Assembly (NCBI GenBank): GCA_902635865.1
Contig: CACPPD010000002.1
Coordinates: forward strand, 90,887 to 154,886
Length of the DNA stretch: 64,000 bases
Reading direction: 5' to 3'
Source of the DNA: an uncultured Pelagibacteraceae bacterium
GTDB lineage: Bacteria > Pseudomonadota > Alphaproteobacteria > Pelagibacterales > Pelagibacteraceae
In this document: positions 3,673-22,018 of the stretch, piece after piece
Position numbering within the stretch: position 1 is the stretch's first letter
Layout: each line of letters opens with the position of its first letter
Position numbers and translations under genes: made by a program
Notes under the pieces: generated by a model
What the model was told of the DNA's origin: nothing
Databases searched by the model: none
The model's input: only the letters and a program-made list of their open reading frames with translations

Positions 3673-4431
3673 ATGAAATATATTATTTTTATTAAATCTC
3701 TGTACACATATACAAAAAACAGTTTAATTTCATTTCTAAGCTTTTTAATCATAAAACTAATCCCTAAGAAAAACATTTTAAAATTAATTACTTCCTTGGA
3801 AAATAAAAATGTACTTGTACTTGGTACTGGACCAAGTTTAGACAAATTAAATCAAAAGCTTATTGACGAGTATGATATAATTTTTTTTCTAAATAATGCA
3901 ATTAATGTCTCAAAGATATTCAATTTTGAAAAAAAAAAAAAAATATTTTTTAATTCCGATTTGTTTAGATTTAAGCAATTAAAAAAAAATATTTCTACTT
4001 TAGATAATTCTTGGATATATGTTTTTATCCCAATTCATCTTCAATTATTTTTAAGTTTTATTTATTTTTACTTTAATAGAAATGCTTATTTATTAGTTCC
4101 AAAATATAGGATAGGTTTCCCATTTGAAAAAAATGTAACAAAATCATTCATAACATATTGCCTCGCAGGAAATTATGAAACAAAAAATAAATTAAATATA
4201 AATAATTTTAAAGCTTTCCCACACACAGTTGCTTTAAATGCTTTTTATTTTTTAATTTCAAGCAGAGTAAACAAATTACATTATCTTGGATGTGATTTTA
4301 GTTCAGGGAAATCATCGTACACTCAATACAAAGGAGCAGGTAATCTTAAGAACAAGAAAGTTTATCTTTGGGTAAATAAGTTAAAAAAATTATCAAAATA
4401 TTATTCTATAGATTTTAAAGATTTAAAATAA
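3673..4431 (+). CDS. DUF115/Maf/Cst-II-like putative (nonulosonate) glycosyltransferase
   Basis: VLVLGTGPSL...FLNNA...LHYLGCDFS pattern resembles the GNGPSL...GIDF signature. Confidence 0.55.
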   Translation: MKYIIFIKSLYTYTKNSLISFLSFLIIKLIPKKNILKLITSLENKNVLVLGTGPSLDKLNQKLIDEYDIIFFLNNAINVSKIFNFEKKKKIFFNSDLFRFKQLKKNISTLDNSWIYVFIPIHLQLFLSFIYFYFNRNAYLLVPKYRIGFPFEKNVTKSFITYCLAGNYETKNKLNINNFKAFPHTVALNAFYFLISSRVNKLHYLGCDFSSGKSSYTQYKGAGNLKNKKVYLWVNKLKKLSKYYSIDFKDLK

Positions 4432-6578: not shown

Positions 6579-7769
6579 ATGATAAAATTTAAGACTAAAA
6601 TGAGCAATTTATCTAAAAACTCTCTTAATTTAATTCTTTATTTATCAATTTCCTTTTATCCGATTTATTTGTTTGGGTCAGGATCAATTCAACTTTCACA
6701 TTTTTTATTATTAATATTTTCAATTATTGTTTTACTAAAAATAAATATTCCTTTGGATAGATATTTTTATACATTTTTATCTTTTGTAATTTACTGCTAT
6801 TTCGTAAGTATATTTTACCTTTATCATGACTTATATGTGTTTAATGATATTAATCTATATATCTCGTCTTCTAAAACGCCTACAATAAAATATTTAAGAG
6901 AGTTACTGTTTTTAACTTATAATTTTATTTTAACAATATCACTTTTATCATTTTTCAACTATCAAAAAAAATATATTGTAATTTTTTATGGTCTCTCAAC
7001 TGCGATATTAATAATTCTTTTTTCTTTAATATACGGAATTCTTAACGAAAGCCTAGCATTTCGTTTTACAGGGTATTTCAATAATCCAAATCAACTAGGA
7101 TATTTTTGTGTATGCATATTTTCATTAACTTATTTGCTTTATAGAAACTTATACATTCCTTATTATTTAATGGTTATTTTTCTATCAATAATAATTTTAT
7201 TTTCAGTTTTAACATTGTCAAAAGCATCTTATATATCTTTACTTTTGTGTGCGATATTCGCAATTAAGCCATATAACTATAAATATTTTAGATTATATGA
7301 AATTATAGCCGTATTATTTGTGATTTTTATATTTGTTTTATTTTTTAAAAATATTTCTGAAATGTTTTTTTTTGATCGAATATTGAACATGTGGACAGAG
7401 CAAGATAGCTCACTAGAAGTAAGGGGTTATCTAGTTTTTTTTGAAGCAAATTCTATTCAAGCTTTTTTTGGTATGGGAATAAAAAATGCAATAAATATTC
7501 AGAACTACGATATTCATTCTACTTTGGCAATGATTATATCTTCTTTTGGTTTTGTTGGTTTTGCAATTTTTTGTAGCTTATTATTATTTTGGATTTTAGA
7601 TATAAATAAATCCTATGGTTTCCGTGGAGTAATTTGCGTATGTGCTCCTTCTTTACTTTATGGTTTGACTCACAATGGAATAAGATTTTCTATATTTTGG
7701 ATTATGTTTGCTGTATCAATATATTTCAGCAAAGAAATTATTAAACAAAAAAACGTTAAAGATTTTTAA
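6579..7769 (+). CDS. Wzy-like O-antigen polymerase / ligase-family membrane protein
   Basis: About 10 TM segments; RFTGYFNNPNQLG, LSKAS, DIHST. Confidence 0.7.
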   Translation: MIKFKTKMSNLSKNSLNLILYLSISFYPIYLFGSGSIQLSHFLLLIFSIIVLLKINIPLDRYFYTFLSFVIYCYFVSIFYLYHDLYVFNDINLYISSSKTPTIKYLRELLFLTYNFILTISLLSFFNYQKKYIVIFYGLSTAILIILFSLIYGILNESLAFRFTGYFNNPNQLGYFCVCIFSLTYLLYRNLYIPYYLMVIFLSIIILFSVLTLSKASYISLLLCAIFAIKPYNYKYFRLYEIIAVLFVIFIFVLFFKNISEMFFFDRILNMWTEQDSSLEVRGYLVFFEANSIQAFFGMGIKNAINIQNYDIHSTLAMIISSFGFVGFAIFCSLLLFWILDINKSYGFRGVICVCAPSLLYGLTHNGIRFSIFWIMFAVSIYFSKEIIKQKNVKDF

Positions 7770-7834: not shown

Positions 7835-9109
7835 ATGAATATTAAAAAGCTTAAATTGGGTATAATTGGATTGGGATATGTAGGTTTACCTTTAGCTGTG
7901 GAATTTTCAAAAAAAAGAAAAGTTATTGGTTATGATATTAGCGCTTCTAGAATTAAAGAGTTAAAACGTGGTTTTGATAGGACATTAGAAATTAACAATG
8001 GAAGTTTTAAAATTAATAGAAATTTAGAACTAGCTAACAAAATTGAAAAAATTAAAAATTGTAATTGTTACATTGTTACAGTACCAACACCAATAAACAA
8101 AAGTAACAAACCAGACTTATCTTTATTATTTAAAGCAACAAAATCAATTGCAAAAATTCTTAAACCCAAAGATATTGTAATTTATGAGTCCACAGTTTAT
8201 CCAGGCTGTACTGAAGAAAAATGTGTACCAATATTAGAAAAAATATCAGGACTAAAATTTAATAAGGATTTTTTTTGTGGTTATAGTCCTGAAAGAATAA
8301 ATCCTGGAGATAAAAAACACAGAATTAAAGACATTAAAAAAATTGTTTCTGGTTCTACAAGTAAAATAACCAATTTAATTGATAAACTTTATAACGAAAT
8401 TATAGTTGCCGGGACTTATAAGGTTAAAAGTATTATTATTGCTGAAGCTGCGAAAGTTATTGAAAATACTCAAAGAGATTTAAATATTGCCTTACTTAAT
8501 GAATTATCATTAATTTTTAATAAATTAAAAATAAATACTTCAGAAGTAATTTCTGCAGCCAAAACAAAATGGAATTTTATCCCATTTTTTCCTGGACTAG
8601 TTGGAGGTCACTGTATTGGAGTTGACCCATACTATTTGACATTTAAAGCCGAAAAATTAGGACATAAACCTAAAATTATTTTAGCTGGGAGAAATTTAAA
8701 TAACAATATGAGTTCATATGTTGTATCTCAATTTATTAATCATTTAAAAAGAAAAAACATTAAAATTAAAAACGCAAAAATTTTAATTCTTGGACTGACT
8801 TTTAAAGAAAATTGCCCAGATTTAAGAAATTCAAGAATCAAAGATATTTTTATAAAATTAAAAAACAAAAATTGCAAAATTGATTTATATGATCCATTAG
8901 CAGAACAAAAAGAAATACAATATGTATATAAGAAAAAAAAAATTTCTAAATTTTTAAAAAATAAATATGATGGTATAATTATTTCAGTTGGTCATGATGA
9001 ATTTAAAAAAATGGGAATTGGTTATATTAAATCTTTATGTAAAAATAATCATATCATTTTTGACTTAAAAAGTTTATTTAATAAGAAATTTTCTAACTTT
9101 CAGCTATAA
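7835..9109 (+). CDS. UDP-N-acetylhexosamine 6-dehydrogenase (TviB/WbpO family)
   Basis: GLGYVGLPLA, YESTVYPG, YSPERINPGD, GLVGGHCIGVDPYYL, TFKENCPD. Confidence 0.95.
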   Translation: MNIKKLKLGIIGLGYVGLPLAVEFSKKRKVIGYDISASRIKELKRGFDRTLEINNGSFKINRNLELANKIEKIKNCNCYIVTVPTPINKSNKPDLSLLFKATKSIAKILKPKDIVIYESTVYPGCTEEKCVPILEKISGLKFNKDFFCGYSPERINPGDKKHRIKDIKKIVSGSTSKITNLIDKLYNEIIVAGTYKVKSIIIAEAAKVIENTQRDLNIALLNELSLIFNKLKINTSEVISAAKTKWNFIPFFPGLVGGHCIGVDPYYLTFKAEKLGHKPKIILAGRNLNNNMSSYVVSQFINHLKRKNIKIKNAKILILGLTFKENCPDLRNSRIKDIFIKLKNKNCKIDLYDPLAEQKEIQYVYKKKKISKFLKNKYDGIIISVGHDEFKKMGIGYIKSLCKNNHIIFDLKSLFNKKFSNFQL

Positions 9110-9185
9110 TGTCAATTGATAAGTAATTAAATAAAATAAAAATTATTAATTTCACAAGGTTTAAAGAAATGAGAGAAATTTTAAA

Positions 9186-10310
9186 ATGACTAAACGTTTA
9201 ATTATAGTATCAAATAGTTCATCAAGTGTAATTAATTTTAGAGGCCAATTAATTAAACAACTAATAAATGAAAATTTTAAAGTTTTAGTTATTGTACCTA
9301 AAAACGAATTTACTACTGATTTTGAAAACAAGATTTTAAAATTAGGAGCTTCAGTATCGACTATACCCTTAGATAGAGCAGGTTTAAATCCGATGCGTGA
9401 CTTTATATCTTTTTTAGCTTTAAAATCTGAATTTAAAAAATTTAAACCAGATATAATTTTATCATATACATCTAAACCAATTATATATAGTGGTTTTGCA
9501 ATTAAAAATAATACCAATATAAAATTTTTTCCAAATTTAACAGGTTTAGGTTATGGATTTACAGAAGAATTGAAATTAAAACGAATAATTATTAATTTTA
9601 TATTAAAAAAATTATATAAATTATCTCTAAAATTTTCCTCAGCAATTATTTTTCAGAACCCAGATGATGAAAGTTTATTTAATGATTTAAATATTATAAA
9701 AAATAAAAAAACATTTGTTGTAAATGGTTCAGGGGTAGACTTAAATTTTTATTCTCCTAAAAGTTTACCCTCTAAACCTATATTTTTGATGTTGTCTCGA
9801 TTAGTCGCTGACAAAGGAGTTATTGAGTATTGTGAAGCTGCAAAAGAAATTCGCAGTAAATTTCCTGACGTAGAATTTCAATTAGCTGGATCTTTTGATA
9901 AAAATCCATCAGGTCTGAAATATAATCAAATTAAACCCTTTATTGAATCAAAAGATATAAATTATTTAGGTTATTTAAATGACGTTAGAAATGCACTAAT
10001 AAAATGCAAATTTTATGTTTTACCTTCTTATAGAGAAGGAACTCCAAGATCGGTTTTAGAGGCAATGTCTATCGGAAGACCAATTATAACAACAGATACA
10101 GTTGGTTGCAAAGAAACAGTTGTAAATGGTGTTAATGGATTATTAGTACCGATTAAGGATAAAAAATCCTTAGTAATAGCAATAAAAAGAATGCTTGAGT
10201 ATGATGAAAAAAAAATAAATCATATGGCTAGTGAAAGTATTAGATTAGTCAAAGAAAAATATGATGTTATAAAAGTAAATCAGAACATAATTCAAATTAT
10301 TAAAAATTAA
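9186..10310 (+). CDS. GT4 glycosyltransferase, PglA-like
   Basis: NFRGQLI, YTSKPIIY, FQNPDD, NGSGVD, PSYREGTPRSVLEAM. Confidence 0.9.
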   Translation: MTKRLIIVSNSSSSVINFRGQLIKQLINENFKVLVIVPKNEFTTDFENKILKLGASVSTIPLDRAGLNPMRDFISFLALKSEFKKFKPDIILSYTSKPIIYSGFAIKNNTNIKFFPNLTGLGYGFTEELKLKRIIINFILKKLYKLSLKFSSAIIFQNPDDESLFNDLNIIKNKKTFVVNGSGVDLNFYSPKSLPSKPIFLMLSRLVADKGVIEYCEAAKEIRSKFPDVEFQLAGSFDKNPSGLKYNQIKPFIESKDINYLGYLNDVRNALIKCKFYVLPSYREGTPRSVLEAMSIGRPIITTDTVGCKETVVNGVNGLLVPIKDKKSLVIAIKRMLEYDEKKINHMASESIRLVKEKYDVIKVNQNIIQIIKN

Positions 10311-10316
10311 TAAGTC

Positions 10317-11480
10317 ATGAGAATTAGAGAATATCCTTACTATCCACCACAACTAATCAACAAAATAAACAAAATATTAAAATCAGGTAAAGTTAATTAT
10401 TGGACAGGAGACCAGGGGGTATTGTTTGAAAAAGAATTTTCAAGGTATGTGGGAAATAAATACTCTATTGCGGTATCAAATGGAAGTGTTGCACTAGAAA
10501 TGGCATTAAAAGCATTTAAATTAAAAAAAAATGATAAAATAATCGTTACACCAAGATCATTTATAATATCCTCAAGTTGTGTAATAAATTTAGGTTTAAA
10601 GCCTATATTTGCTGATGTAGATTTAAATGGAAATTTAAGTATAGAGGGTATTAAAAAGTCATATACAAGTAAGGTAAAAGCAATAATTGTTGTTCATCTA
10701 AACGGTTTTCCTTGTGATTTAGATCCTATAATTAGTTTTGCTAAAAAGAATAATATTAAAATAATAGAAGATTGCTCACAAGCACACGGTGCTAAATATA
10801 AAAATAAACCAGTTGGTTCTTTTGGAGATATCTCCACGTGGTCATTTTGTCAAGATAAGATAATTTCAACCGGAGGTGAGGGGGGAATGATTTCAACAAA
10901 TAACAAAAAGTTTTGGAATACATGTTGGTCTTTAAAAGATCATGGAAAAAATTATGCTGGTGTTTTCTATAAAAAACATAATTTAGGTTTTAAATGGCTT
11001 CATGATAACTATGGTACTAATTATAGAATGACAGAAATTCAAGCTGTAATAGGTAGATATCAATTAAAAAATTTAGATTCTCAAATAAAAAAAAGAAATC
11101 AAATTGCAAAAAAAATTATTAATTCATTAAAATTATTTTGGAATAAATATAAGTTAATTTCAGAGCCAAACTTTAAATGTTATGAATGTACTCATGCTTA
11201 TTATAGATTAAATATTTATATTAATGTTAAGAGAAGAGAAAAAATTAAATTACTAAAATATATGAATAAAAAGAAAATAAACTGCAATGAAGGACCATGT
11301 CCAGAAATTTATAAAGAAAAAATTTTTAAAAAATTAAAAATATTTCCATCACGAAAACTTATTAATACAGTAGAATTAGGTAAAAAAAGTATTGCATACC
11401 ACATAAACCCATATATTAAATCACATAAATTAAAAAATGATATTAGAAATTTAAAACTAATATTTTCGAAATTCGTATAA
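10317..11480 (+). CDS. DegT/DnrJ sugar 4-aminotransferase (Neisseria PglC / Acinetobacter WeeJ-QhbB type)
   Basis: KVNYWTG, IEDCSQAHGA, SFCQDKIISTGGEGG (PLP lysine). Confidence 0.92.
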   Translation: MRIREYPYYPPQLINKINKILKSGKVNYWTGDQGVLFEKEFSRYVGNKYSIAVSNGSVALEMALKAFKLKKNDKIIVTPRSFIISSSCVINLGLKPIFADVDLNGNLSIEGIKKSYTSKVKAIIVVHLNGFPCDLDPIISFAKKNNIKIIEDCSQAHGAKYKNKPVGSFGDISTWSFCQDKIISTGGEGGMISTNNKKFWNTCWSLKDHGKNYAGVFYKKHNLGFKWLHDNYGTNYRMTEIQAVIGRYQLKNLDSQIKKRNQIAKKIINSLKLFWNKYKLISEPNFKCYECTHAYYRLNIYINVKRREKIKLLKYMNKKKINCNEGPCPEIYKEKIFKKLKIFPSRKLINTVELGKKSIAYHINPYIKSHKLKNDIRNLKLIFSKFV

Positions 11481-12080
11481 ATGTATAGGAAGTTTTTTAA
11501 AGATCTAATTGATTTTTATTTAGCCATTTTATTGTTTTTACTTTTATTCCCTTTAATAATAATCATTTACTTAATTTTATATATTTTAATTGGTTCACCA
11601 ATTTATTTTCAAAAAAGACCTGGATATTTGAATAAACCATTTACAATTTATAAATTCAAAACTTTAATTGATAAAAAATGTAGAGTCCAAAAGTCAAAAA
11701 AAAAGAATTTTAAGTTTGGTAATTTTTTGAGAAAAACTGGGCTAGATGAAATACCACAATTAATAAACATTTTAAGGGGCGAAATGAGCTTTATTGGTCC
11801 TCGCCCACTATTAATGAGATATTTAAAATTAAGACCCTTTATTAATCATTCAAGAAGTAAATGTCTACCTGGAATTTCCGGATTAGCACAAATTCAAAGA
11901 AATAAAAAAGATAATAAAGGCAAGTGGAAGTCACAGCTTGATTTTGATAAATATTACTTTGAAAATTTATCTTTATTTTTAGACTTAAAAATTTTTTTAC
12001 TTACATTAATTAAAATATTTTTATTAAATAGAAAACAGGACTATTTGGTGGAGAAGCCTTTAACTAAAAAAAGTATATAA
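11481..12080 (+). CDS. Monotopic phosphoglycosyl transferase (Campylobacter PglC / ItrA type initiating transferase)
   Basis: QKRPG, YKFKT, LRKTGLDEIPQLINILRGEMSFIGPRP, PGISGLAQ. Confidence 0.92.
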   Translation: MYRKFFKDLIDFYLAILLFLLLFPLIIIIYLILYILIGSPIYFQKRPGYLNKPFTIYKFKTLIDKKCRVQKSKKKNFKFGNFLRKTGLDEIPQLINILRGEMSFIGPRPLLMRYLKLRPFINHSRSKCLPGISGLAQIQRNKKDNKGKWKSQLDFDKYYFENLSLFLDLKIFLLTLIKIFLLNRKQDYLVEKPLTKKSI

Positions 12081-12131
12081 TTTAAATATAGATATTTGTA
12101 TTTTTTTATTTAAAAATGAATATAAGAAAGA

Positions 12132-12356
12132 ATGTCTAAAAATTCAAAAAAAATACTAAATCATTTATCAAAAATTCTTGAAAAAAAAAATTTAAAACCC
12201 ACTGATAATATCTCGGAACTTAAACTATTTGACTCAATTATAATTTTGCAAATAATAAATATGTGTAACTTGAACTTTAAAAAAAAAATTGATGGTTTAC
12301 AAATATCAAAATGTAAAAAAATAATTGATATTATAAATCTGATCGAAAAAAAGTGA
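12132..12356 (+). CDS. Acyl carrier protein
   Basis: 74 aa; FDSII matches the (W/F)DSL phosphopantetheine site; overlaps a KAS III gene. Confidence 0.7.
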   Translation: MSKNSKKILNHLSKILEKKNLKPTDNISELKLFDSIIILQIINMCNLNFKKKIDGLQISKCKKIIDIINLIEKK

Positions 12357-13396
12357 TAAAAGAAATAAATGGTATTAAAATTGAGGGCATATCTTGCTGT
12401 GTTCCCAAAAAAACAGTTTTAAATAAATATTCAAAAGAAAATCAGCATAGAGCAAGAGCAATAAAAGCAATTGGTATAGAAAGAAGACCAGTTGCTAATG
12501 AAAATATTAATACTTCGGATTTAGTTTTAAAGTCTGCAAAAAATATTTTAAAAAAACTTAAATGGAAAGTAAACGACGTTGATATTTTAATTTTTGTTAC
12601 ACAAACTCCAGATTATTTAACTCCAGCAACATCTGGTATTTTACAAGATAAGTTAAACCTAAAAAAATCAACTTTTGTTTTAGATATTAATCTTGGTTGC
12701 TCAGGGTATACACATGGTTTGATTACAATAAGCTCATTAATGCAAAATTTAAAACTTAAAAAGGGATTGCTAGCAGTAGGTGATGTCACTACTCAACTGG
12801 TAAATAATAAAGATAATGTATCAAATTTACTTTTTGGAGATGCAGGAAGTGTCACAGCATTATTGAATACTGAAAATAATTCAAATAAAATTTTATGTAA
12901 TTATTATTCAGATGGATCTGGTTTTGAAGATATTATAGTGAATACACATTCTTTATCTGGGAGAAATAAAATTTCAAAATCTGATTTTAAAAAAAAAAAA
13001 GATAAAAATAATAACATAAGATCTAATATAAATATTAAATTAAATGGACCTAATATTTTTAGTTTTGCAATTAATACAATTCCACCAACTTTAAAAAAAA
13101 TCTTAAAGAATGTAAAAAATATAAAATATTGTTTTCTTCATCAAGCTAATAAAATGATACAAGAAAATATTTCCTCTCACATTAAACAAAATTATAAAAA
13201 TGTTATCTTTCCTTCATCACTTAAAAACTTTGGAAATACTAGCTCTGCAAGTATCCCCATCACAATATGTAGCAATTTTTCAAAAAAAAAAATAAAAGGT
13301 AATTCAATATTTTGTGGTTTTGGAGTGGGTTTATCTATATCCACTGTTGTTGTAAATTTGAGTAAAACTAAGATTTTTAAAATAATTAAAATATGA
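12353..13396 (+). CDS. 3-oxoacyl-ACP synthase III (FabH-like)
   Basis: Cys-His-Asn triad: LGCSGY, FLHQAN, FGNTSSAS; FGDAG; GFGVGLS. Confidence 0.92.
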   Translation: MIKEINGIKIEGISCCVPKKTVLNKYSKENQHRARAIKAIGIERRPVANENINTSDLVLKSAKNILKKLKWKVNDVDILIFVTQTPDYLTPATSGILQDKLNLKKSTFVLDINLGCSGYTHGLITISSLMQNLKLKKGLLAVGDVTTQLVNNKDNVSNLLFGDAGSVTALLNTENNSNKILCNYYSDGSGFEDIIVNTHSLSGRNKISKSDFKKKKDKNNNIRSNINIKLNGPNIFSFAINTIPPTLKKILKNVKNIKYCFLHQANKMIQENISSHIKQNYKNVIFPSSLKNFGNTSSASIPITICSNFSKKKIKGNSIFCGFGVGLSISTVVVNLSKTKIFKIIKI

Positions 13397-14121
13397 AAAA
13401 TGTACTTGTAACAGGAGCAACATCTGGAATTGGATTAAATTACGTAAAAAAAAATTTAAATAAAGATTACAATTTTTTTTTAATAGGTAGAAATTTTACT
13501 GATTTAAAAAATTATATTAAAAATAAAAAAATTAAGTCAAAAATAAAATTTATAAATTTTGATTTTAAAAAAAAAATTGGATTATTTAATTTTAATAAAA
13601 TACCAAAACTTGATTATATTGTGTTATCAGCGGGTATAGCTAAATACAATTTAATAAAAGATTTTAATGAAAATATATTTGATGAAGTAATAAATATTAA
13701 TTTAATTCAAACATCAAAATTTGTTGGTTTTTTAGTTAAAAAAAACAAAATAAATGAATATGCATCTATAGTAGTTATTTCGTCGATTAGTGGTTGTAAA
13801 ATGGCTTTCAAACTTAATTATGCTTATTCAATTTCTAAAGCTGGGTTAAAAGCAATGGTAGAGACATTAGCATGTGAATTAGCAAGCAAGTATATAAGAG
13901 TAAATTCTGTTGCTCCGGGAATGGTAGAAACTCCATTAAATAAAAAATTGAGCAATGATGATTATTTCACCAAAATTGATAAAACTAAATATTTACTTGG
14001 TAAAAGATACGCAAAAGTAAAAGAAATTAGTGATGTGATTAATTTTTTATTGTCAAAAAATTCATCTTTTATTACTGGTCAAACAATTATTGTAGATGGT
14101 GGTTTTACACTGACGAAATGA
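13393..14121 (+). CDS. SDR oxidoreductase, FabG-like
   Basis: TGATSGIG, YSISK (YxxxK), NSVAPG, ITGQTIIVDGG. Confidence 0.88.
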   Translation: MKNVLVTGATSGIGLNYVKKNLNKDYNFFLIGRNFTDLKNYIKNKKIKSKIKFINFDFKKKIGLFNFNKIPKLDYIVLSAGIAKYNLIKDFNENIFDEVININLIQTSKFVGFLVKKNKINEYASIVVISSISGCKMAFKLNYAYSISKAGLKAMVETLACELASKYIRVNSVAPGMVETPLNKKLSNDDYFTKIDKTKYLLGKRYAKVKEISDVINFLLSKNSSFITGQTIIVDGGFTLTK

Positions 14122-14714
14122 AAAAATTTTATAATAAATTTTATTTTGTTGGATCTGGTGGCTATGGAAAACAACTATCATATATGACAAAGAAAAATCA
14201 GATTATTAAATCACCAATATTTGTTGACGATAAACTTGATTTAAATATTAAAAAATTTTTCAAATTAAATGAAATTATTCACTATAATATTTTTGTTGGA
14301 AAACCAAATAAAAGAGAAAAAATATTTAATTATTTGAAAAAGAAAAAAAATTTTAATTACTCTACTTTAATTCTACCAAATTCATTTATTTACACTGATA
14401 AAATAAAGAATGGATGTATTATAGAGCACCATGTTCTTATTTCAACTCAAGCTTCAATAGGTAATGGTAGTTTAATTCTAACAGGTTCTGTTATAGGTCA
14501 TAACTCTAAAATAGGAAATTTTTGTAATGTTGGTTCAAATGTAACTATTTCTGGAAATGTTAAAATAGGTAAAAAAGTCGAGATAGGGAGTCAAACCTTT
14601 ATTTCAAATAATTTAAGCATATGTGATAATGTCATAATTGCACCTGGTTCCACTGTATTAAAAAATATTACAAAGCCAGGTGTATATAATAGCAATATTC
14701 TTATTAAGTTTTGA
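14118..14714 (+). CDS. Hexapeptide-repeat sugar N-acyltransferase (PglD/NeuD family)
   Basis: GSGGYG and FVDD N-terminal domain; left-handed beta-helix repeats with IGHN. Confidence 0.85.
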   Translation: MKKFYNKFYFVGSGGYGKQLSYMTKKNQIIKSPIFVDDKLDLNIKKFFKLNEIIHYNIFVGKPNKREKIFNYLKKKKNFNYSTLILPNSFIYTDKIKNGCIIEHHVLISTQASIGNGSLILTGSVIGHNSKIGNFCNVGSNVTISGNVKIGKKVEIGSQTFISNNLSICDNVIIAPGSTVLKNITKPGVYNSNILIKF

Positions 14715-15643
14715 TGCAAAACATAAAAGAAAAATTAATTTCTACTAAGCTAAAATCTAACGGTTTTTTTGTTATTAAAAATTTTATAAAAAAAACAGAT
14801 TTGGATAATAATTTTTTAAATTATTTAAAAAAAAAAGAAAAATTTGTTGATGGTGTTATTCATGGAATAGACAATAAATTTTATAATAAAATAAATAATA
14901 AAATCGGAAGACTAGCTTCAAATCTCACTAGCAAAAGCTTACAAATAAGTAATCAAAAATTTTGTTATTTTTCAATAAAGATAAAAAAATCAAATAACAA
15001 AATTCCAAAATTGATAAAACCATTTAACGTTAATAAAGATCCCAAAGTTTTGCCTGGAGGTATATTAAACTGGCACATTGATCATTACACTTATTATTTC
15101 CACAAAGATCATAAAAATTATTTAATTTGTTATCTTCCAATTCTTAAACCAAATAAAAATTACTCAAACGTTGCTTTAATTCCATACAATATTTTAAAAA
15201 AAAAAGATGTAAAAACTTACAACAGAATTAAATATAGAGGTGCTGTAAGATTTAGAAAAGTAGAAAAAGATACAAAACCTTGGTTCGATCTTAGATTTAA
15301 AAAAAATACAAAAATTGGAAACTGGTATGCACTTGATGATTATTTAGATGATGTCAATGGTTGGAAATTAAATTTAGATTTAGAAAAAAATAAAATTGTT
15401 CCAAAGTTAGGTCTTTATGATCTACTGATCATGAGAGCCGATGTAATACATAAAACAAATGATGCAATAACAGATAGGATCGCAATAAGATGTGATATTT
15501 TGCCTTATAAAGCAAAACATGAACAGTCATTTGTGGGATTTTTAAATATATGTTTTAAATATTATTTTGAAACTACCAAAGCCAAATATAATTTAAAAAG
15601 ATATATTAAAAACTATATTAATAAATTTTTTAGATATGAATAA
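14711..15643 (+). CDS. Putative Fe(II)/2-oxoglutarate dioxygenase (divergent PhyH-like)
   Basis: NGFFVIKNF, WHID (HxD), distal VIHKT...DRIAIR. Confidence 0.65.
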   Translation: MMQNIKEKLISTKLKSNGFFVIKNFIKKTDLDNNFLNYLKKKEKFVDGVIHGIDNKFYNKINNKIGRLASNLTSKSLQISNQKFCYFSIKIKKSNNKIPKLIKPFNVNKDPKVLPGGILNWHIDHYTYYFHKDHKNYLICYLPILKPNKNYSNVALIPYNILKKKDVKTYNRIKYRGAVRFRKVEKDTKPWFDLRFKKNTKIGNWYALDDYLDDVNGWKLNLDLEKNKIVPKLGLYDLLIMRADVIHKTNDAITDRIAIRCDILPYKAKHEQSFVGFLNICFKYYFETTKAKYNLKRYIKNYINKFFRYE

Positions 15644-16457
15644 TAATAGCGTTACAGAAAAGACTAAAAATTTGATTAAAAATAAAAAATTTATAGCCAA
15701 AGCTATTAATCATAATATTTTAGAAGATTTAGGATTTTTTGTTATTAAAAATGCTTTTCCTTTAGATACAGTAGAAAAATTTCGTATGAATTTTTTAAAC
15801 TTATTCGAAAAAAAAAAATTACATAAAACAAAACAGCACCCAGTTGAAGTCAAGATTGAAGGCAGGAAATTGTTCGAAAAAATTTATAAAGATAAAAATT
15901 TAAAAAAAATTGTTAAAGGTTTTTTTAACGGACGAGTTGGTTCAGATTTTTTTAGAATTGTCAAAAAAGATTATAAAAACTCCTCTGCAGTTTTCTGCCA
16001 TCAAGATACTGGTTATCAGATGGGTAATTTTGACAGATTTTCATTATTTATTAGCTTAACTAACAATAACAACTTAAATGGAGGGATGGTTATTTATCCA
16101 TCTACTCATAAGTTTGGTTATTTAGGTGATGCAGGAGAAATTTCAAAAAAAATTACAAAAAAATACTTTAAAATATGTCCAAACTTAAAAGAGGGTGACG
16201 TTTTAGTAATGCACTCAGCCTTATGGCATGAGTCGAATAAAAATTTTAAAAAGACAAATAGAATTTACTTAGAAATACATATTCAAAACCTTGATGATCC
16301 AAATACTAAATATAATATTATTGGAAAAAGTAAAAAAGTTATAAAACCATTATTTGATAGAAATAATATATTTTCAAATTCAAGAGTAAGTAGAATTATA
16401 AAATTTAAAAAACAAATTCGTTTATTAGAAAAAAAATATTTAATTAATGATAAGTAA
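15636..16457 (+). CDS. Phytanoyl-CoA dioxygenase family (PhyH) Fe(II)/2OG enzyme
   Basis: GFFVIKNAF, CHQD, NGGMVIYPSTHK, GDVLVMHSALWHES...R. Confidence 0.85.
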   Translation: MNNNSVTEKTKNLIKNKKFIAKAINHNILEDLGFFVIKNAFPLDTVEKFRMNFLNLFEKKKLHKTKQHPVEVKIEGRKLFEKIYKDKNLKKIVKGFFNGRVGSDFFRIVKKDYKNSSAVFCHQDTGYQMGNFDRFSLFISLTNNNNLNGGMVIYPSTHKFGYLGDAGEISKKITKKYFKICPNLKEGDVLVMHSALWHESNKNFKKTNRIYLEIHIQNLDDPNTKYNIIGKSKKVIKPLFDRNNIFSNSRVSRIIKFKKQIRLLEKKYLINDK

Positions 16458-17280
16458 TAATTGTTTGATTTGTGAAAATGAGTGTAAAAATTACAAACAA
16501 TGGAACCAACACAAAATTCTAATTTGTAAGAATTGTACATTTTCATATATTCATTCAACTAAGTCTCAAGTCGAGGATGTGTTCTCTCCTTCAGAAAAAT
16601 CTTTTATAGATAAATCTATTGAAAATGATAAAGCAAGAAGTAATTTATTTGCTGAAAAAATTGTTAAAAATAGAATTAAAGTTTATGAGAAAATATTAAA
16701 AAAAAAACCATTAAATATTCTTGAAGTAGGTTGTGGAACAGCAGTATCTTCATATGGATACCTGAAAAATAATATAAACTATACAGGAATTGAATTAGAT
16801 AGGAATCTGTACAATTTTGCCATGAATAAATCTAGGAATGTTCTTTACGGTGATTTTTTGGAAACTAATTTTGATGAAAAATTTGATATAATATTCGCGA
16901 GTCAGGTTGTTGAACACATAGATAAACCTAATAATTTTTTTAAAAAATGTAACGAAATTTTAGAAAAAAATGGAATTTTACACATTGATGTTCCTAATGA
17001 TTTTTCAATGGTTTCATTTGTGCGTAAAATTTTTAAAAATAAAAAATATTATGGAGCAATTAGGCCACCTTATCATATGCGGGCATATTCTCCAAAATCT
17101 ATAAGTAAATTATTTTCAAGAAATCATTTCTATAATATAAAAGTTTTTTCAAAAATTAATTGGGACAGAACGTTTGGTCAATTAGTTGAGAATGTTTCAC
17201 TACAACGGGCTGTATTATTTCGTTTACAGCAATTATCAGGAATGAACAGTTTATTAATTGGATTGGCTCAAAAAAAATAA
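16447..17280 (+). CDS. Class I SAM-dependent methyltransferase with N-terminal CxxC..CxxC
   Basis: CLIC/CKNC; ILEVGCGT; FDII..QVVEHI; DVPN. Confidence 0.88.
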   Translation: MISNNCLICENECKNYKQWNQHKILICKNCTFSYIHSTKSQVEDVFSPSEKSFIDKSIENDKARSNLFAEKIVKNRIKVYEKILKKKPLNILEVGCGTAVSSYGYLKNNINYTGIELDRNLYNFAMNKSRNVLYGDFLETNFDEKFDIIFASQVVEHIDKPNNFFKKCNEILEKNGILHIDVPNDFSMVSFVRKIFKNKKYYGAIRPPYHMRAYSPKSISKLFSRNHFYNIKVFSKINWDRTFGQLVENVSLQRAVLFRLQQLSGMNSLLIGLAQKK

Positions 17281-17361
17281 TAGCTTTTTTTACCTAAGAA
17301 TATATTTTAATCTTTATGATTATTTATATGTTAATTTAGTTGAAAACTAAAAATTAATATC

Positions 17362-18336
17362 ATGCTAATACAATTTTTGCTTAATTTCCTTTTATCATTT
17401 ATCTTATTAAATTATTACTTATTTAAAATTAACTTTGCAAATTTAATTGATAAAAATTTGTCAGGGTATGGTAGTCAAAAAAAAACTAAAACTGCTTCTG
17501 GAATAGTATTTTCTGTAATTATATTAATTAATTTAGTCTATTATTATACCAGTGAAAACTATATTGAATTACTCCCAAATAGATTTTATGTATTTATTTT
17601 TTCAATTTTTTTATTGAGTTCAATTTCTTTTATTGACGATTTAAAACCATTAGATCCAAGATTGCGATTAATTGCACAAACTATAATAACTTATTTTTCT
17701 TTAACCTTAATAAATTTAGAATATTTTAATCTACCATTAAAACTAATAATATTTTTATCTTTATTCTTTTGGATTTATATTACAAACATAACTAATTTTA
17801 TTGATGGATCTGATGGATATTTAGCAGTTAATGCAATTTCATTTTTTTTAGGATTGATAATTGTTAATCAATTTATTGTTAATACTTTTTTTTCATATCA
17901 TATTGCTATTATTTTAGTGCCAATTTTGCTAAGTTTTATTTACTTTAACAGACCAAAGGCAAAATTATACATGGGTGATACTGGAAGTATCTTGATTGGT
18001 TATATTGTTGGTTTTTGTATTTTAGAATTAATTTTTAGTGATTATTGGTTTATTGCAATTAGTATATATTCCTATCCCTTTATTGACTGTTCTTTAACTT
18101 TACTAAAAAAAATTTTTTCTGGAAGGAGTGTTTTTAAAAGAGATTTTGATTATTTCTTTTTAATACCGATTAAAAAACTTCAGAAAAATAATTATAAAGT
18201 ATTATCAGTGTCAATTATTTACAATTTGTTAAATTTAATTGTTATTACATCTATTATGTACTTTGAAAACGTATTACTTGTTTTTATAAGTGTTATTCTT
18301 AGCTTGATTAAATTAAGAGTATTTCGATATTTATAA
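17362..18336 (+). CDS. MraY/WecA-family polyprenyl-phosphate HexNAc-1-phosphate transferase
   Basis: Multi-TM; SFIDDL, NFIDGSDG, YMGDTGS. Confidence 0.85.
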   Translation: MLIQFLLNFLLSFILLNYYLFKINFANLIDKNLSGYGSQKKTKTASGIVFSVIILINLVYYYTSENYIELLPNRFYVFIFSIFLLSSISFIDDLKPLDPRLRLIAQTIITYFSLTLINLEYFNLPLKLIIFLSLFFWIYITNITNFIDGSDGYLAVNAISFFLGLIIVNQFIVNTFFSYHIAIILVPILLSFIYFNRPKAKLYMGDTGSILIGYIVGFCILELIFSDYWFIAISIYSYPFIDCSLTLLKKIFSGRSVFKRDFDYFFLIPIKKLQKNNYKVLSVSIIYNLLNLIVITSIMYFENVLLVFISVILSLIKLRVFRYL

Positions 18337-18371
18337 AAAAGATATATTAATTTAAAAATTTAAATTTTTTT

Positions 18372-19523
18372 TTAATCAACTAAAATTTCTTTCCATATTT
18401 GTGAGTATCTATTAGTCATCTTTCCAATACTAAATTCATTGCCAATTCTTTTTTTTGCTTTAAAGCACATATTTTTCCAGTTGTTTGATTTAAGATCAAT
18501 TAAAGCTTTTTTTATTGTCATTGCAAGCTCCCTCGAATTGCTTGGCTGAACAATCCAACCAGTTTTTTCAACAATAATTGATGCATCACCAACATCAGTT
18601 GCAATACATGGTGTACCACAAGCCATTGCTTCGGCAACCACATTCGGAAATGCCTCTCCAGATTTACTAGACATGATATGAATATCAATAACATTCATTA
18701 TTACATTAATATCTTTTTGTGATCCTAGTAGTATAATTTCATTATGTAATTTAAATTTTTTGATCATTCCAATAAGTTTTTTATTTTTTTTATTAATTTC
18801 AAGACCTACTAGTATACATTTAAAAAAAACTTTATTTTTTTTCAAAAAATATAATGCTTCTAATAGGCTTTTATGATCTTTATGAGGACGAAAACGTGCA
18901 ACATTGCCCAATATTGGTACTTTTCTACTTAAATTATATTTACTTTTTAATAACTTCTCTCTTACCGGATTTGATTTAAATTTTTTTAAATCATATCCAT
19001 TAGCAATATAAATACTTTTCTTTTTATCATATCCAATTTTTTCATGAATTTTAATTGATTTTTGTGAACAGAATATTATTTTTTTCGGGATTATGTAGGA
19101 GAGTTTTGCTAAAATTTTGACTAAAATTAGTAAACTTTTTTTTGTTTCATTTTTGTCTAAATCTGAATGTCGAACATTCCAAATTATCTTTTTCACTCTA
19201 GCTAATTTAGCTGCTATACTTCCAAAAAAATCTGCATGATACAGCCAAGTTTGTACTATATTTGGTTTTTCTTCTCTTAAAATTTTTATTAATTTAATTA
19301 AAATTTTTATTAATTTAAATAATGAGGTAACAGAAAACATTGCTGATTTCATGTTCAGTGTATAAACTCTTATTTGGTTTTTTGATAAAAGTTCACCATA
19401 CTTTCCTTCATCTATTAATGACACCACAACATGTTCATTTTTAAAATCGTTACAACAAATTCTATATAAAACACCTTCAGCACCACCATCTCCTAAAGAG
19501 GTTATTATGTGTAAAATTTTCAT
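18372..19523 (-). CDS. GT4 glycosyltransferase
   Basis: GGAEG, QTWLYHAD, EAFPNVVAEAMACGTPCIATDVGD. Confidence 0.92.
   Translation of the reverse strand: MKILHIITSLGDGGAEGVLYRICCNDFKNEHVVVSLIDEGKYGELLSKNQIRVYTLNMKSAMFSVTSLFKLIKILIKLIKILREEKPNIVQTWLYHADFFGSIAAKLARVKKIIWNVRHSDLDKNETKKSLLILVKILAKLSYIIPKKIIFCSQKSIKIHEKIGYDKKKSIYIANGYDLKKFKSNPVREKLLKSKYNLSRKVPILGNVARFRPHKDHKSLLEALYFLKKNKVFFKCILVGLEINKKNKKLIGMIKKFKLHNEIILLGSQKDINVIMNVIDIHIMSSKSGEAFPNVVAEAMACGTPCIATDVGDASIIVEKTGWIVQPSNSRELAMTIKKALIDLKSNNWKNMCFKAKKRIGNEFSIGKMTNRYSQIWKEILVD
19277..19318. repeat. Perfect 21-bp tandem duplication, in frame (KLIKILI-KLIKILR)
   Basis: TTAAAATTTTTATTAATTTAA twice, at 19277-19297 and 19298-19318. Confidence 0.9.
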
Positions 19524-19709
19524 AAAAGAATTTTTTGTTAATTTGTAATTTAGTCCTTTTTCTATTACTTATAAAAATTATTATTAATAAACAAGGCTAT
19601 ATAAGACAAGTTAAATGATAAAACTTCTTAAATTTAAGCTCTTAAAAATTTTTATGTAATTTAAAAAAGAAATATAGTTTATTGTGATAAATATATTATA
19701 GATATTGAA

Positions 19710-20723
19710 ATGAGTATATTAATTACAGGATCAGCTGGATTTATTGGTTCAGCATTGTGTTTACGTTTGTTGGAACGAGGAGATAAAATTATCGGAATTG
19801 ATAATCATAATGATTATTATGACCCCTTATTAAAAGAATTGCGCGTTGAAAGATACTTAAATAATTCAAATTATACTCACCTTCGTATTGATTTAAACGA
19901 CCGATCAGCTATAGAAAATGCGTTTTCAAAATATAAACCTCAGAAAGTTGTAAACCTAGCAGCTCAAGCAGGAGTTCGTTATTCAATTGAAAATCCTTAT
20001 GTGTATATCAATAGCAATATTGTTGGTTTTTTAAATATATTGGAAGGATGTAGGTACCATAAAATAAAACATCTAGTTTATGCAAGTTCTTCAAGCGTAT
20101 ATGGAGCAAATACTCTTATGCCTTTTAGTGTTAGTCATAACGTAGATCATCCTTTAAGTTTATATGCTGCAACTAAAAAATCTAATGAACTTATGGCTCA
20201 CACTTATAGTCATCTTTATAACTTACCCACAACTGGTCTTCGTTTTTTTACTGTTTACGGTCCTTGGGGTAGACCTGATATGGCGTTATTTCAATTTACC
20301 AAGTCTATTTTAGAGGATAAGAAAATAGATGTTTTTAATTTTGGAAAACATCGAAGGGATTTTACTTATATTGATGATATTGTAGAGGGCGTAATTAGGG
20401 TGCTTGATAAACCGGCATCGTCAGATATTAGTTGGAGTAGTAAAAAACCTAATCCCGGAAGGAGCAAAGCTCCTTGGAGTATATACAACATTGGAAGAAA
20501 TCACCCAGTTGATCTAATGGATTATATAAGTGCATTAGAAAAAGCTTTGGGAAAAAAAGCTAAAATTAATATGCTTCCATTACAGCCAGGCGATGTACCA
20601 GATACATTTGCTGATGTTGAAGATTTAGTCAAAAGCTTTAATTACAAGCCCAAAACTTCTATCGAAGAAGGGGTTGTTAAATTTGTAAATTGGTATCTTA
20701 AATATTTAAAGTTACAAAAATAA
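19710..20723 (+). CDS. UDP-glucuronate 4-epimerase-like NAD-dependent epimerase
   Basis: [47 protein letters not shown]. Confidence 0.93.
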
Positions 20724-20768: not shown

Positions 20769-20884
20769 GCCTGGTGATTATTGCGAAAGTGTTATACCCG
20801 ATCCCATTCCGAACTCGGCAGTCAAGCCTTTCAGCGCCAATGGTACTTTGTCTTAAGACACGGAAGAGTAGGACGTTGCCAGGC
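20769..20884 (+). rRNA. rrf: 5S rRNA, unlinked from 23S
   Basis: GCCTGG...CCAGGC terminal helix; CCCGATCCCATTCCGAACTCGG and GAGTAGG signatures. Confidence 0.98.
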
Positions 20885-21903: not shown

Positions 21904-21907
21904 TTTT

Positions 21908-22018
21908 ATGGATAATGAAAGCCATAAAAATACTTGGAATACTTTTACTAAATTTGTTCTATGGGGGACAATATCTGTAATTTTAGTTCTTGTTTTAATG
22001 GCAATTTTTCTATTATAA
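21908..22018 (+). CDS. aa3-type cytochrome c oxidase subunit IV-like small protein (missed by ORF track)
   Basis: Manual translation MDNESHKNTWNTFTKFVLWGTISVILVLVLMAIFLL; HxxTW/YxxF plus one TM; sits upstream of pntA as in other Alphaproteobacteria. Confidence 0.8.
   Translation: MDNESHKNTWNTFTKFVLWGTISVILVLVLMAIFLL

Follow-up and report, generated by a model that had tools for sequence, protein, structure and literature searches.

A putative acyl-supply and tailoring cassette with two predicted 2-oxoglutarate oxygenases in a SAR11 glycan island

The viosamine island of Pseudomonas syringae pv. tabaci 6605 consists of vioA, vioM, vioT, vioS, vioB, vioR and acp. Its product is 4-(3-hydroxybutanamido)-2-O-methyl-viosamine, its vioR and vioM mutants have defined glycan phenotypes, and orfA-orfG of the P. 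aeruginosa PAK flagellin glycosylation island are homologous to it, according to the part of the published account cited here (PMC3927599). In Flavobacterium psychrophilum, wfpC-G together with pglE and pglF yield a 2-acetamido-4-amino-2,4,6-trideoxyglucose derivative, Qui2NAc4N(3,5-dihydroxyhexanoyl), via two ketoacyl-acyl carrier protein synthase (KAS) genes (Cisar et al. 2019, PMC6519341, likewise cited in part). We describe a cassette of seven genes that resembles both systems in its core and adds two oxygenases to it. It lies in a 64,000-nucleotide stretch, hereafter the window, from an uncultured Pelagibacteraceae (SAR11) bacterium (contig CACPPD010000002.1, positions 90,887 to 154,886), whose 0.93 Mb genome is 75% complete. 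Judging from its sequence, the cassette probably (we put it at about 0.6) supplies and tailors the acyl group for a bacillosamine-type pathway encoded in the glycan island of SAR11 hypervariable region 2 (HVR2).

Open reading frame (ORF) calls place the seven genes in one direction between positions 12132 and 17280, all on the + strand and each overlapping the next, by 4, 4, 4, 4 (or 1), 8 and 11 nt. The block is separated by 51 nt from the PglC-like gene before it and by 81 nt from the WecA-like gene after it (Table 1), as an initial annotation of the window had reported. That annotation had also described intact catalytic motifs; in alignments, the catalytic residues are invariant across the cassette homologues. 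All seven genes are under purifying selection relative to the nearest metagenomic relative, locus L010, with ratios of nonsynonymous to synonymous substitution rates (dN/dS) of 0.06-0.17 at dS of 0.23-0.53. Dozens of independent contigs share the arrangement, which excludes a chance pattern of ORFs: the seven-gene feature is real, conserved and under selection. A scan of positions 9000-19700 gave 81 promoter-like sites against 89 expected and one terminator-like site against 1.6 expected; the AT-rich DNA makes such a scan uninformative about operon boundaries.

Table 1 Features of the cassette and its immediate neighbours.
Feature	Position in window	Strand	Basis
Dedicated acyl carrier protein (ACP), 74 aa	12132..12356	+	PP-binding 20.1 bits
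KAS III (FabH-like) condensing enzyme, 347 aa	12353..13396	+	ACP_syn_III, ACP_syn_III_C
Putative FabG-like 3-oxoacyl-ACP reductase (short-chain dehydrogenase/reductase, SDR), 242 aa	13393..14121	+	adh_short_C2 133 bits
PglD/VioB-type left-handed beta-helix (LbH) N-acyltransferase for 4-amino sugars, 198 aa	14118..14714	+	Hexapep
ORF5, divergent PhyH-like Fe(II)/2-oxoglutarate (2OG) oxygenase, 310 aa	14711..15643	+	Fold, invariant residues
ORF6, PhyH-family Fe(II)/2OG oxygenase, 273 aa	15636..16457	+	PF05721 32.8 bits, cut-off 22
Class I S-adenosylmethionine (SAM)-dependent methyltransferase, 277 aa	16447..17280	+	Methyltransf_23, _11, _12, _25
DegT/PglE-type sugar 4-aminotransferase, upstream of cassette	10317..11480	+	PF01041 266.6 bits
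Small PglC-like polyprenyl-phosphate sugar-1-phosphate transferase, 199 aa	11481..12080	+	PF02397 Bac_transf 164.5 bits
WecA/MraY-family (Glycos_transf_4) phosphosugar transferase, downstream flank	17362..18336	+	PF00953 88 bits

The identities first proposed for the seven genes, both dioxygenases included, hold when Pfam and NCBIfam searches, motifs and folds are taken together. The phosphopantetheine attachment site of the ACP, D34-S35, is invariant in 17 homologues that range from SAR11-like loci to Dyella, and the gene has a dN/dS of 0.10. KAS III finds its top Protein Data Bank (PDB) match in 4efi (E 9e-46), and its Cys-His-Asn triad (C116/H263/N295) is invariant in 10 cassette homologues; in L010 (2726-3741), its counterpart matches as two overlapping pieces in different frames, which could reflect an assembly error or a frameshift. 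The predicted reductase shows the TGATSGIG and YxxxK motifs in translation and scores 120-133 bits with FabG-type NCBIfam models, under the cut-offs of those models. The acyltransferase matches TIGR03570 (NeuD/PglB/VioB) at 126 bits, its closest PDB structures are VioB (7txp, E 5e-18) and Campylobacter jejuni PglD (3bss), and G127-H128, which contains the catalytic histidine, is invariant among the cassette homologues.

From the gene identities, motifs, folds, selection and synteny observed in this work we infer the following route, in which the chain length, the substrate of the oxygenases and the methylation site are predicted. KAS III would condense acetyl-CoA with malonyl-ACP on the private ACP, and the FabG-like reductase would convert the resulting acetoacetyl-ACP to 3-hydroxybutanoyl-ACP. 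The chain is expected to stop at C4, because there is a single KAS III and neither a dehydratase nor an enoyl reductase. With this group the PglD/VioB-type enzyme would then acylate N4 of a nucleotide-linked 4-amino-4,6-dideoxy-N-acetylhexosamine supplied by the DegT aminotransferase, and the PglC-like enzyme would load the sugar onto undecaprenyl phosphate and so start a surface glycan, proposed to be an O-antigen or lipooligosaccharide, or an O-linked protein glycan. With their HxD...H triads, ORF5 and ORF6 would hydroxylate unactivated carbons, most likely in the hydroxybutanoyl chain, whether still carried by the ACP or already transferred. In the present sub-lineage the methyltransferase may O-methylate a hydroxyl introduced in this way. 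The sugar expected from this route bears a di- or trihydroxybutanamido group that is in part O-methylated.

The P. syringae analogy drawn in the initial annotation agrees with the cited part of that study (PMC3927599), and its core design stands. Both loci combine a private ACP, KAS III, a 3-oxoacyl-ACP reductase, an LbH N-acyltransferase, a 4-aminotransferase and a methyltransferase, and both, the cassette by prediction, go no further than a C4 3-hydroxyacyl group in amide linkage to a 4-amino-4,6-dideoxyhexose. What does not carry over is dTDP-viosamine itself. In P. syringae it is delivered to flagellin with VioT as the transferase, whereas the cassette sits in a pglE/pglC-like context; by analogy, the pglF/pglE/pglC/pglD logic of this context and of the relatives points to a 2-acetamido-4-amino-2,4,6-trideoxyhexose derived from UDP-N-acetylglucosamine (UDP-GlcNAc) and linked to undecaprenyl phosphate. 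The viosamine methyltransferase acts on the sugar 2-OH; in contrast, that of the cassette is an unrelated, accessory class I enzyme. Finally, the cited part of the viosamine study lists no oxygenase among the seven ORFs, while the cassette has two of the PhyH type.

For the amino sugar, the closest precedent appears to be the F. psychrophilum wfp system (PMC6519341). As far as the cited part of that work goes, it shares with our locus the KAS and ketoreductase genes, an O-antigen-type setting, UDP-Qui2NAc4N supplied through pglF/pglE-type genes, and a PglD homologue whose predicted acyl donor is a locus-specific ACP. However, it relies on two KAS genes and a C6 acyl group, and the same part of the paper names no oxygenase or methyltransferase among its acyl-synthesis genes; the cassette has one KAS III and two 2OG oxygenases. 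Relatives of the Dyella type, described below, combine two KAS III genes with a Rieske enzyme and an ORF5 homologue. With the pgl pathways of Campylobacter (PglF/E/D/C) and Neisseria (PglB/C/D and PglL), the locus has in common the aminotransferase, the small PglC-type transferase and the PglD-type acyltransferase; the PglF type is present in relatives of the cassette, and Wzy_C-domain proteins lie nearby. Bacillosamine synthesis in these pathways uses an acetyl donor, whereas the cassette encodes its own acyl-ACP supply and a predicted oxidative tailoring.

The core of the cassette (ACP, KAS III, reductase, acyltransferase, aminotransferase and PglC-like transferase) is thus, by analogy, of a known pathway design. 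Its apparently new elements are the usual pairing with two oxygenases, one of them from an unannotated family, and the optional methyltransferase. The initial annotation had not recognised the combination as a described pathway, and we found no account of it in the literature searched. The same search returned no oxygenase reported in such private-ACP cassettes, and no dihydroxy- or methoxy-butanoyl amide on a bacterial glycan except that of the 2,4-dihydroxybutyryl perosamine type.

ORF5 is the most divergent member of the cassette. It was called from a TTG codon at 14711, while its relatives begin at the ATG at 14714, which is probably the true start. Neither ORF5 nor its close homologues match any Pfam or NCBIfam model; ORF5 itself has no sequence match in the PDB, its profile finds there a chance match only, and none of its 69 database clusters is named. 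A profile search of 1.84 billion representative proteins yielded about 15 close clusters (E<=1e-30) and about 400 wider relatives; PF05721 is present in the wider relatives sampled, which match the ORF5 profile at E around 1e-25. No ORF5 homologue was found in the phage collection searched.

The AlphaFold2 model of ORF5 has a predicted local distance difference test score (pLDDT) of 89. Foldseek matches it best to the halogenase domain of CurA (PDB 3nnj/3nnf, E 1.4e-7), a carrier-dependent PhyH-like assembly-line enzyme, and also to PHYHD1 (E 1e-7); VIA-align gives Z-scores of about 15 to SnoN, AsqJ, PrhA and the CurA halogenase domain. In the homologue alignment, H122-x-D124, H247 and R256/R260 are invariant, and hhalign relates ORF5 to the ORF6 family with 81% probability across the segment of the distal histidine and arginine. 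Model and conserved residues together assign ORF5 to the predicted double-stranded beta-helix (DSBH) fold of 2OG oxygenases, within a family that has so far escaped annotation. The match to CurA prompted us to consider a halogenase; this is ruled out, as ORF5 keeps the carboxylate ligand and its HxD is invariant. It also differs from the CurA domain in being a stand-alone protein rather than a domain of a polyketide synthase (PKS), with an identity of about 12-15%. A prediction of the complex of ORF5 with the ACP, run without controls, scored 0.00 and speaks neither for nor against binding.

A PhyH-family protein 33% identical to the ORF5 core is encoded on a plasmid of Pseudanabaena sp. ABRG5-3 (NZ_AP017566.1, 8692-9711; locus L087). 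It keeps the WHxDH...H...R pattern, and is flanked by type I PKS and thioesterase genes and by non-ribosomal peptide synthetase (NRPS) and AMP-binding genes.

ORF6 has no PDB match as a single sequence. Its residues H122, D124, H198 and R209 are invariant in the family alignment, and its AlphaFold2 model (pLDDT 88) is matched by Foldseek to proline hydroxylase H11, SnoN, human PhyH and EctD at E of about 1e-12, which confirms a DSBH fold of the PhyH type. For ORF6, too, a halogenase is ruled out by an invariant HxD in place of HxA/G. Halogenation is, though, all that the HxD triad excludes, and the fold does not reveal the type of reaction. One or both 2OG enzymes might then desaturate, epoxidise, cyclise or epimerise the acyl chain or its precursor instead of hydroxylating it, giving an unsaturated, cyclic or stereo-inverted acyl amide. 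The top Z-scores do belong to relatives of this fold that do not hydroxylate (SnoN epimerase, SnoK carbocyclase, AsqJ desaturase/epoxidase and FtmOx1 endoperoxidase), but they are tied with those of ordinary hydroxylases (proline hydroxylase, PhyH, EctD), and we regard such chemistry as quite improbable.

The methyltransferase gene is translationally coupled to ORF6. Its product carries an N-terminal CxxC...CxxC motif and, in translation, motif I as LEVGCGTA. Its similarity to UbiG and BioC in NCBIfam is weak, and its top PDB match is 3cc8 (E 5e-8).

Searching with the ORF5 alignment gave 6 genome loci and 69 metagenome loci, whose synteny we mapped by tblastn; linkage was counted in loci with at least 3 kb of flank, 26 of them SAR11-like and 23 distant. 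Co-occurrence of the dioxygenases with the acp-KAS III block had been set beforehand as a test of the proposal, and they do adjoin it elsewhere. The order ACP-KAS III-SDR-LbH-ORF5 is kept in 24/26 SAR11-like loci (ORF5 65-92% identical), the two exceptions having no sequence upstream. ORF6 is present in 25/26, mostly directly after ORF5; in some (L035, L040, L055) its place is between the aminotransferase gene and that of PglC. A methyltransferase after ORF6 is confined to loci in which the identity of ORF5 is 79% or more. The unit conserved is accordingly one of six genes, as initially described but for the methyltransferase, which is an accessory of the closest relatives only.

Dyella lutea, Chiayiivirga and metagenomes of soil and freshwater are the sources of the distant loci, in which ORF5 is 40-49% identical. 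ACP, KAS III, SDR and LbH genes stand beside the ORF5 homologue in 17/23 of them; a Rieske oxygenase is paired with it in 15/23, and an FkbM methyltransferase is a further element of several. The trio of two oxygenases and one methyltransferase therefore recurs through non-orthologous genes. Homologues of ORF5 without ACP, KAS, SDR and LbH genes in flanks of up to 10 kb include L005 (Xanthomonas sp. NCPPB 1128), L061, L062 and L065, and the family is thus not exclusively tied to the acyl block. In L005, the homologue is found after two unannotated proteins (751 and 421 aa) and before a LysR regulator. Among 401 genomes of the order to which the window belongs, ORF5 occurs in one, the window's own, a distribution that matches rare, strain-specific HVR2 cargo.

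In Dyella lutea (NZ_JAMZEK010000002.1, 803-20823; L002), the gene order is DegT-ACP-KAS III-Rieske-ORF5 homologue-SDR-LbH-KAS III-FkbM. The cassette is set between pilA, present twice, a pair of large proteins that lack annotation (646 aa with tetratricopeptide repeats, and 685 aa) and pilB; genes for a Wzx-like flippase, GT2 enzymes and a UDP-GlcNAc 2-epimerase accompany it. The locus is probably a type IV pilin glycosylation island.

In SAR11, HVR2 is bordered by the 16S-23S cassette on one side and by the 5S gene on the other (PMC3448164). In the window, a lone 5S rRNA lies at 20770-20884, straight after the glycan island, followed by a Pelagibacter pntA RNA motif (21904-21965) upstream of pntA; the G+C content ranges from 0.22 to 0.34. 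The 5S gene, the RNA motif and the naming of homologues of its genes as Pelagibacterales mark the window as SAR11. Because the 5S gene borders HVR2, the glycan genes at 1-20723 represent its 5S-proximal end, a location that fits a strain-variable surface glycan. The aminotransferase, although outside the interval first delimited, is a functional part of the pathway. Its synteny with the cassette extends to the relatives, and its best NCBIfam models are PseC (205 bits) and the LegC family, both under cut-off. The PglC-like gene is kept directly 5' of the ACP in SAR11-like loci. The gene order would, by analogy, follow a pglE-pglC-(acyl supply)-pglD logic. The region farther upstream contains genes for glycosyltransferases, two Wzy_C proteins, gmd/fcl and a TviB-like dehydrogenase, and the region downstream those for the WecA-family transferase, a glycosyltransferase of family GT1 and an SSSSVYG-type epimerase.

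Most SAR11-like relatives have a PglF-type UDP-GlcNAc 4,6-dehydratase of about 650 aa directly 3' of the cassette, which completes a pglF/E/C/D-like set. An AT3-SGNH O-acyltransferase and/or this dehydratase stands between the methyltransferase and the WecA-like gene in L044:10984-14918, L013:13078-17038, L014 and L018. We considered the 337-aa SDR at 19710-20723 as a candidate for the dehydratase missing from the window; its SSSSVYG epimerase-type motif and its pairing with the TviB-like dehydrogenase rule it out.

The Wzy_C-domain membrane proteins are encoded at 229-1536 and 6579-7769. In several SAR11-like loci (L025:14008-15261, L035:12877-14127, and also L040), the gene straight after PglF encodes a homologue of the first, with 45-47% identity. 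Either an O-antigen ligase or a PglL/TfpM-like O-oligosaccharyltransferase could be at hand; its match to TfpM reaches 28 bits only. A 252-aa protein at 3673-4431 gives a weak match to MptE-like (DUF115), a domain found also in Maf-type nonulosonate transferases, and PseB and a PseC-like gene lie farther upstream on the same contig.

Several observations weigh against a bacillosamine-type pathway with acyl tailoring. The PP-binding score of the ACP is just under the 20.8-bit cut-off. The window and L010 are without the PglF-type dehydratase and have in its place an 81-bp spacer (17281-17361 in the window), which looks like a recent loss; the sole UDP-GlcNAc 4,6-dehydratase found in the 75%-complete genome is PseB (G000:C2:54477-55442, 518 bits), and no RmlB was found there above cut-off. 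PseB alone, with no PglF alongside, puts the sugar precursor of this strain in doubt. In flanks of up to 10 kb, six distant ORF5 homologues, that of Xanthomonas among them, are not accompanied by an acyl block. Sugar-acting enzymes of the PhyH fold (SnoN, SnoK, AviO1/EvdO1, KanJ) are structurally as close to ORF5 and ORF6 as the others. Lastly, we know of no glycan structure from any organism that bears the cassette.

The sugar-acting neighbours raise the alternative that the acyl module makes a plain 3-hydroxybutanoyl group, as in P. syringae, and that the two oxygenases and the methyltransferase have their targets in the sugar ring or elsewhere in the glycan. Such tailoring could consist, for instance, of C-hydroxylation, epimerisation or deoxysugar oxidation, with subsequent O-methylation of a sugar hydroxyl. 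VioM offers a model for the last step, as it methylates the sugar 2-OH and not the acyl group in the cited part of the viosamine study (PMC3927599), and the displaced ORF6 of L035, L040 and L055, away from the acyl genes, is compatible with this alternative. However, ORF5 follows the KAS, SDR and LbH genes through SAR11 HVR2, the Dyella pilin island and soil metagenomes while the sugar and glycosyltransferase genes change, and an initiating sugar of the QuiNAc4N type has a free O3 only, which is required for chain extension. We therefore consider ring tailoring rather unlikely. Because ORF5 tracks the acyl genes through changing glycan contexts, hydroxylation of the acyl chain is favoured; a carrier-tethered substrate would fit, since the 33%-identical relative of ORF5 is in a PKS/NRPS cluster and the best fold match of ORF5 itself is ACP-dependent.

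That same remote relative, together with six distant ORF5 homologues near which no sugar genes were detected, might instead be taken to mean that the cassette makes a free or lipid-linked small molecule, a signal or secondary metabolite, and is in the glycan island by chance. This seems very improbable to us: the acyltransferase resembles the PglD/VioB enzymes that N-acylate sugars, the genes of the cassette are coupled in translation, the cassette lies between the aminotransferase/PglC pair and, in relatives, PglF, and it has neither a thioesterase nor an export gene.

Beyond the assignment of the cassette to acyl supply and tailoring, we advance a more tentative proposal for the ORF5 family, which we hold to be possible but doubtful. 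It may represent an unrecognised clade of stand-alone 2OG hydroxylases for short acyl chains that glycan pathways hold on private ACPs. In concert with a second oxygenase, of PhyH type in SAR11 and of Rieske type in Xanthomonadales and soil bacteria, and with a methyltransferase, such enzymes would furnish bacillosamine-type sugars of the SAR11 surface and, in Dyella-type bacteria, of type IV pilin with a butanoyl or hexanoyl amide that is both polyhydroxylated and methoxylated. The literature searched contained no N-acyl group of this kind on a bacterial glycan.

SAR11 is the most abundant group of marine bacteria, and HVR2 is thought to determine its strain-specific surface structures; to our knowledge, no SAR11 surface glycan has been characterised. 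The cassette provides a concrete, testable prediction for one such decoration, and ORF5 defines an unannotated oxygenase family that is mostly partnered by a private set of ACP, KAS III, reductase and acyltransferase. As the module is also found in the culturable Dyella lutea, between pilA and pilB, it can be tested genetically outside SAR11. If the oxygenases do act on the acyl-ACP or the acyl amide, the diversity of amino-sugar N-acyl groups would reach past chain length to oxidative and methyl tailoring. The glycan built by the cassette may, as the initial annotation suggested, serve as a phage receptor. If true, these proposals would bear on the diversity of serotypes and phage receptors, and would offer enzymes for glyco-engineering.

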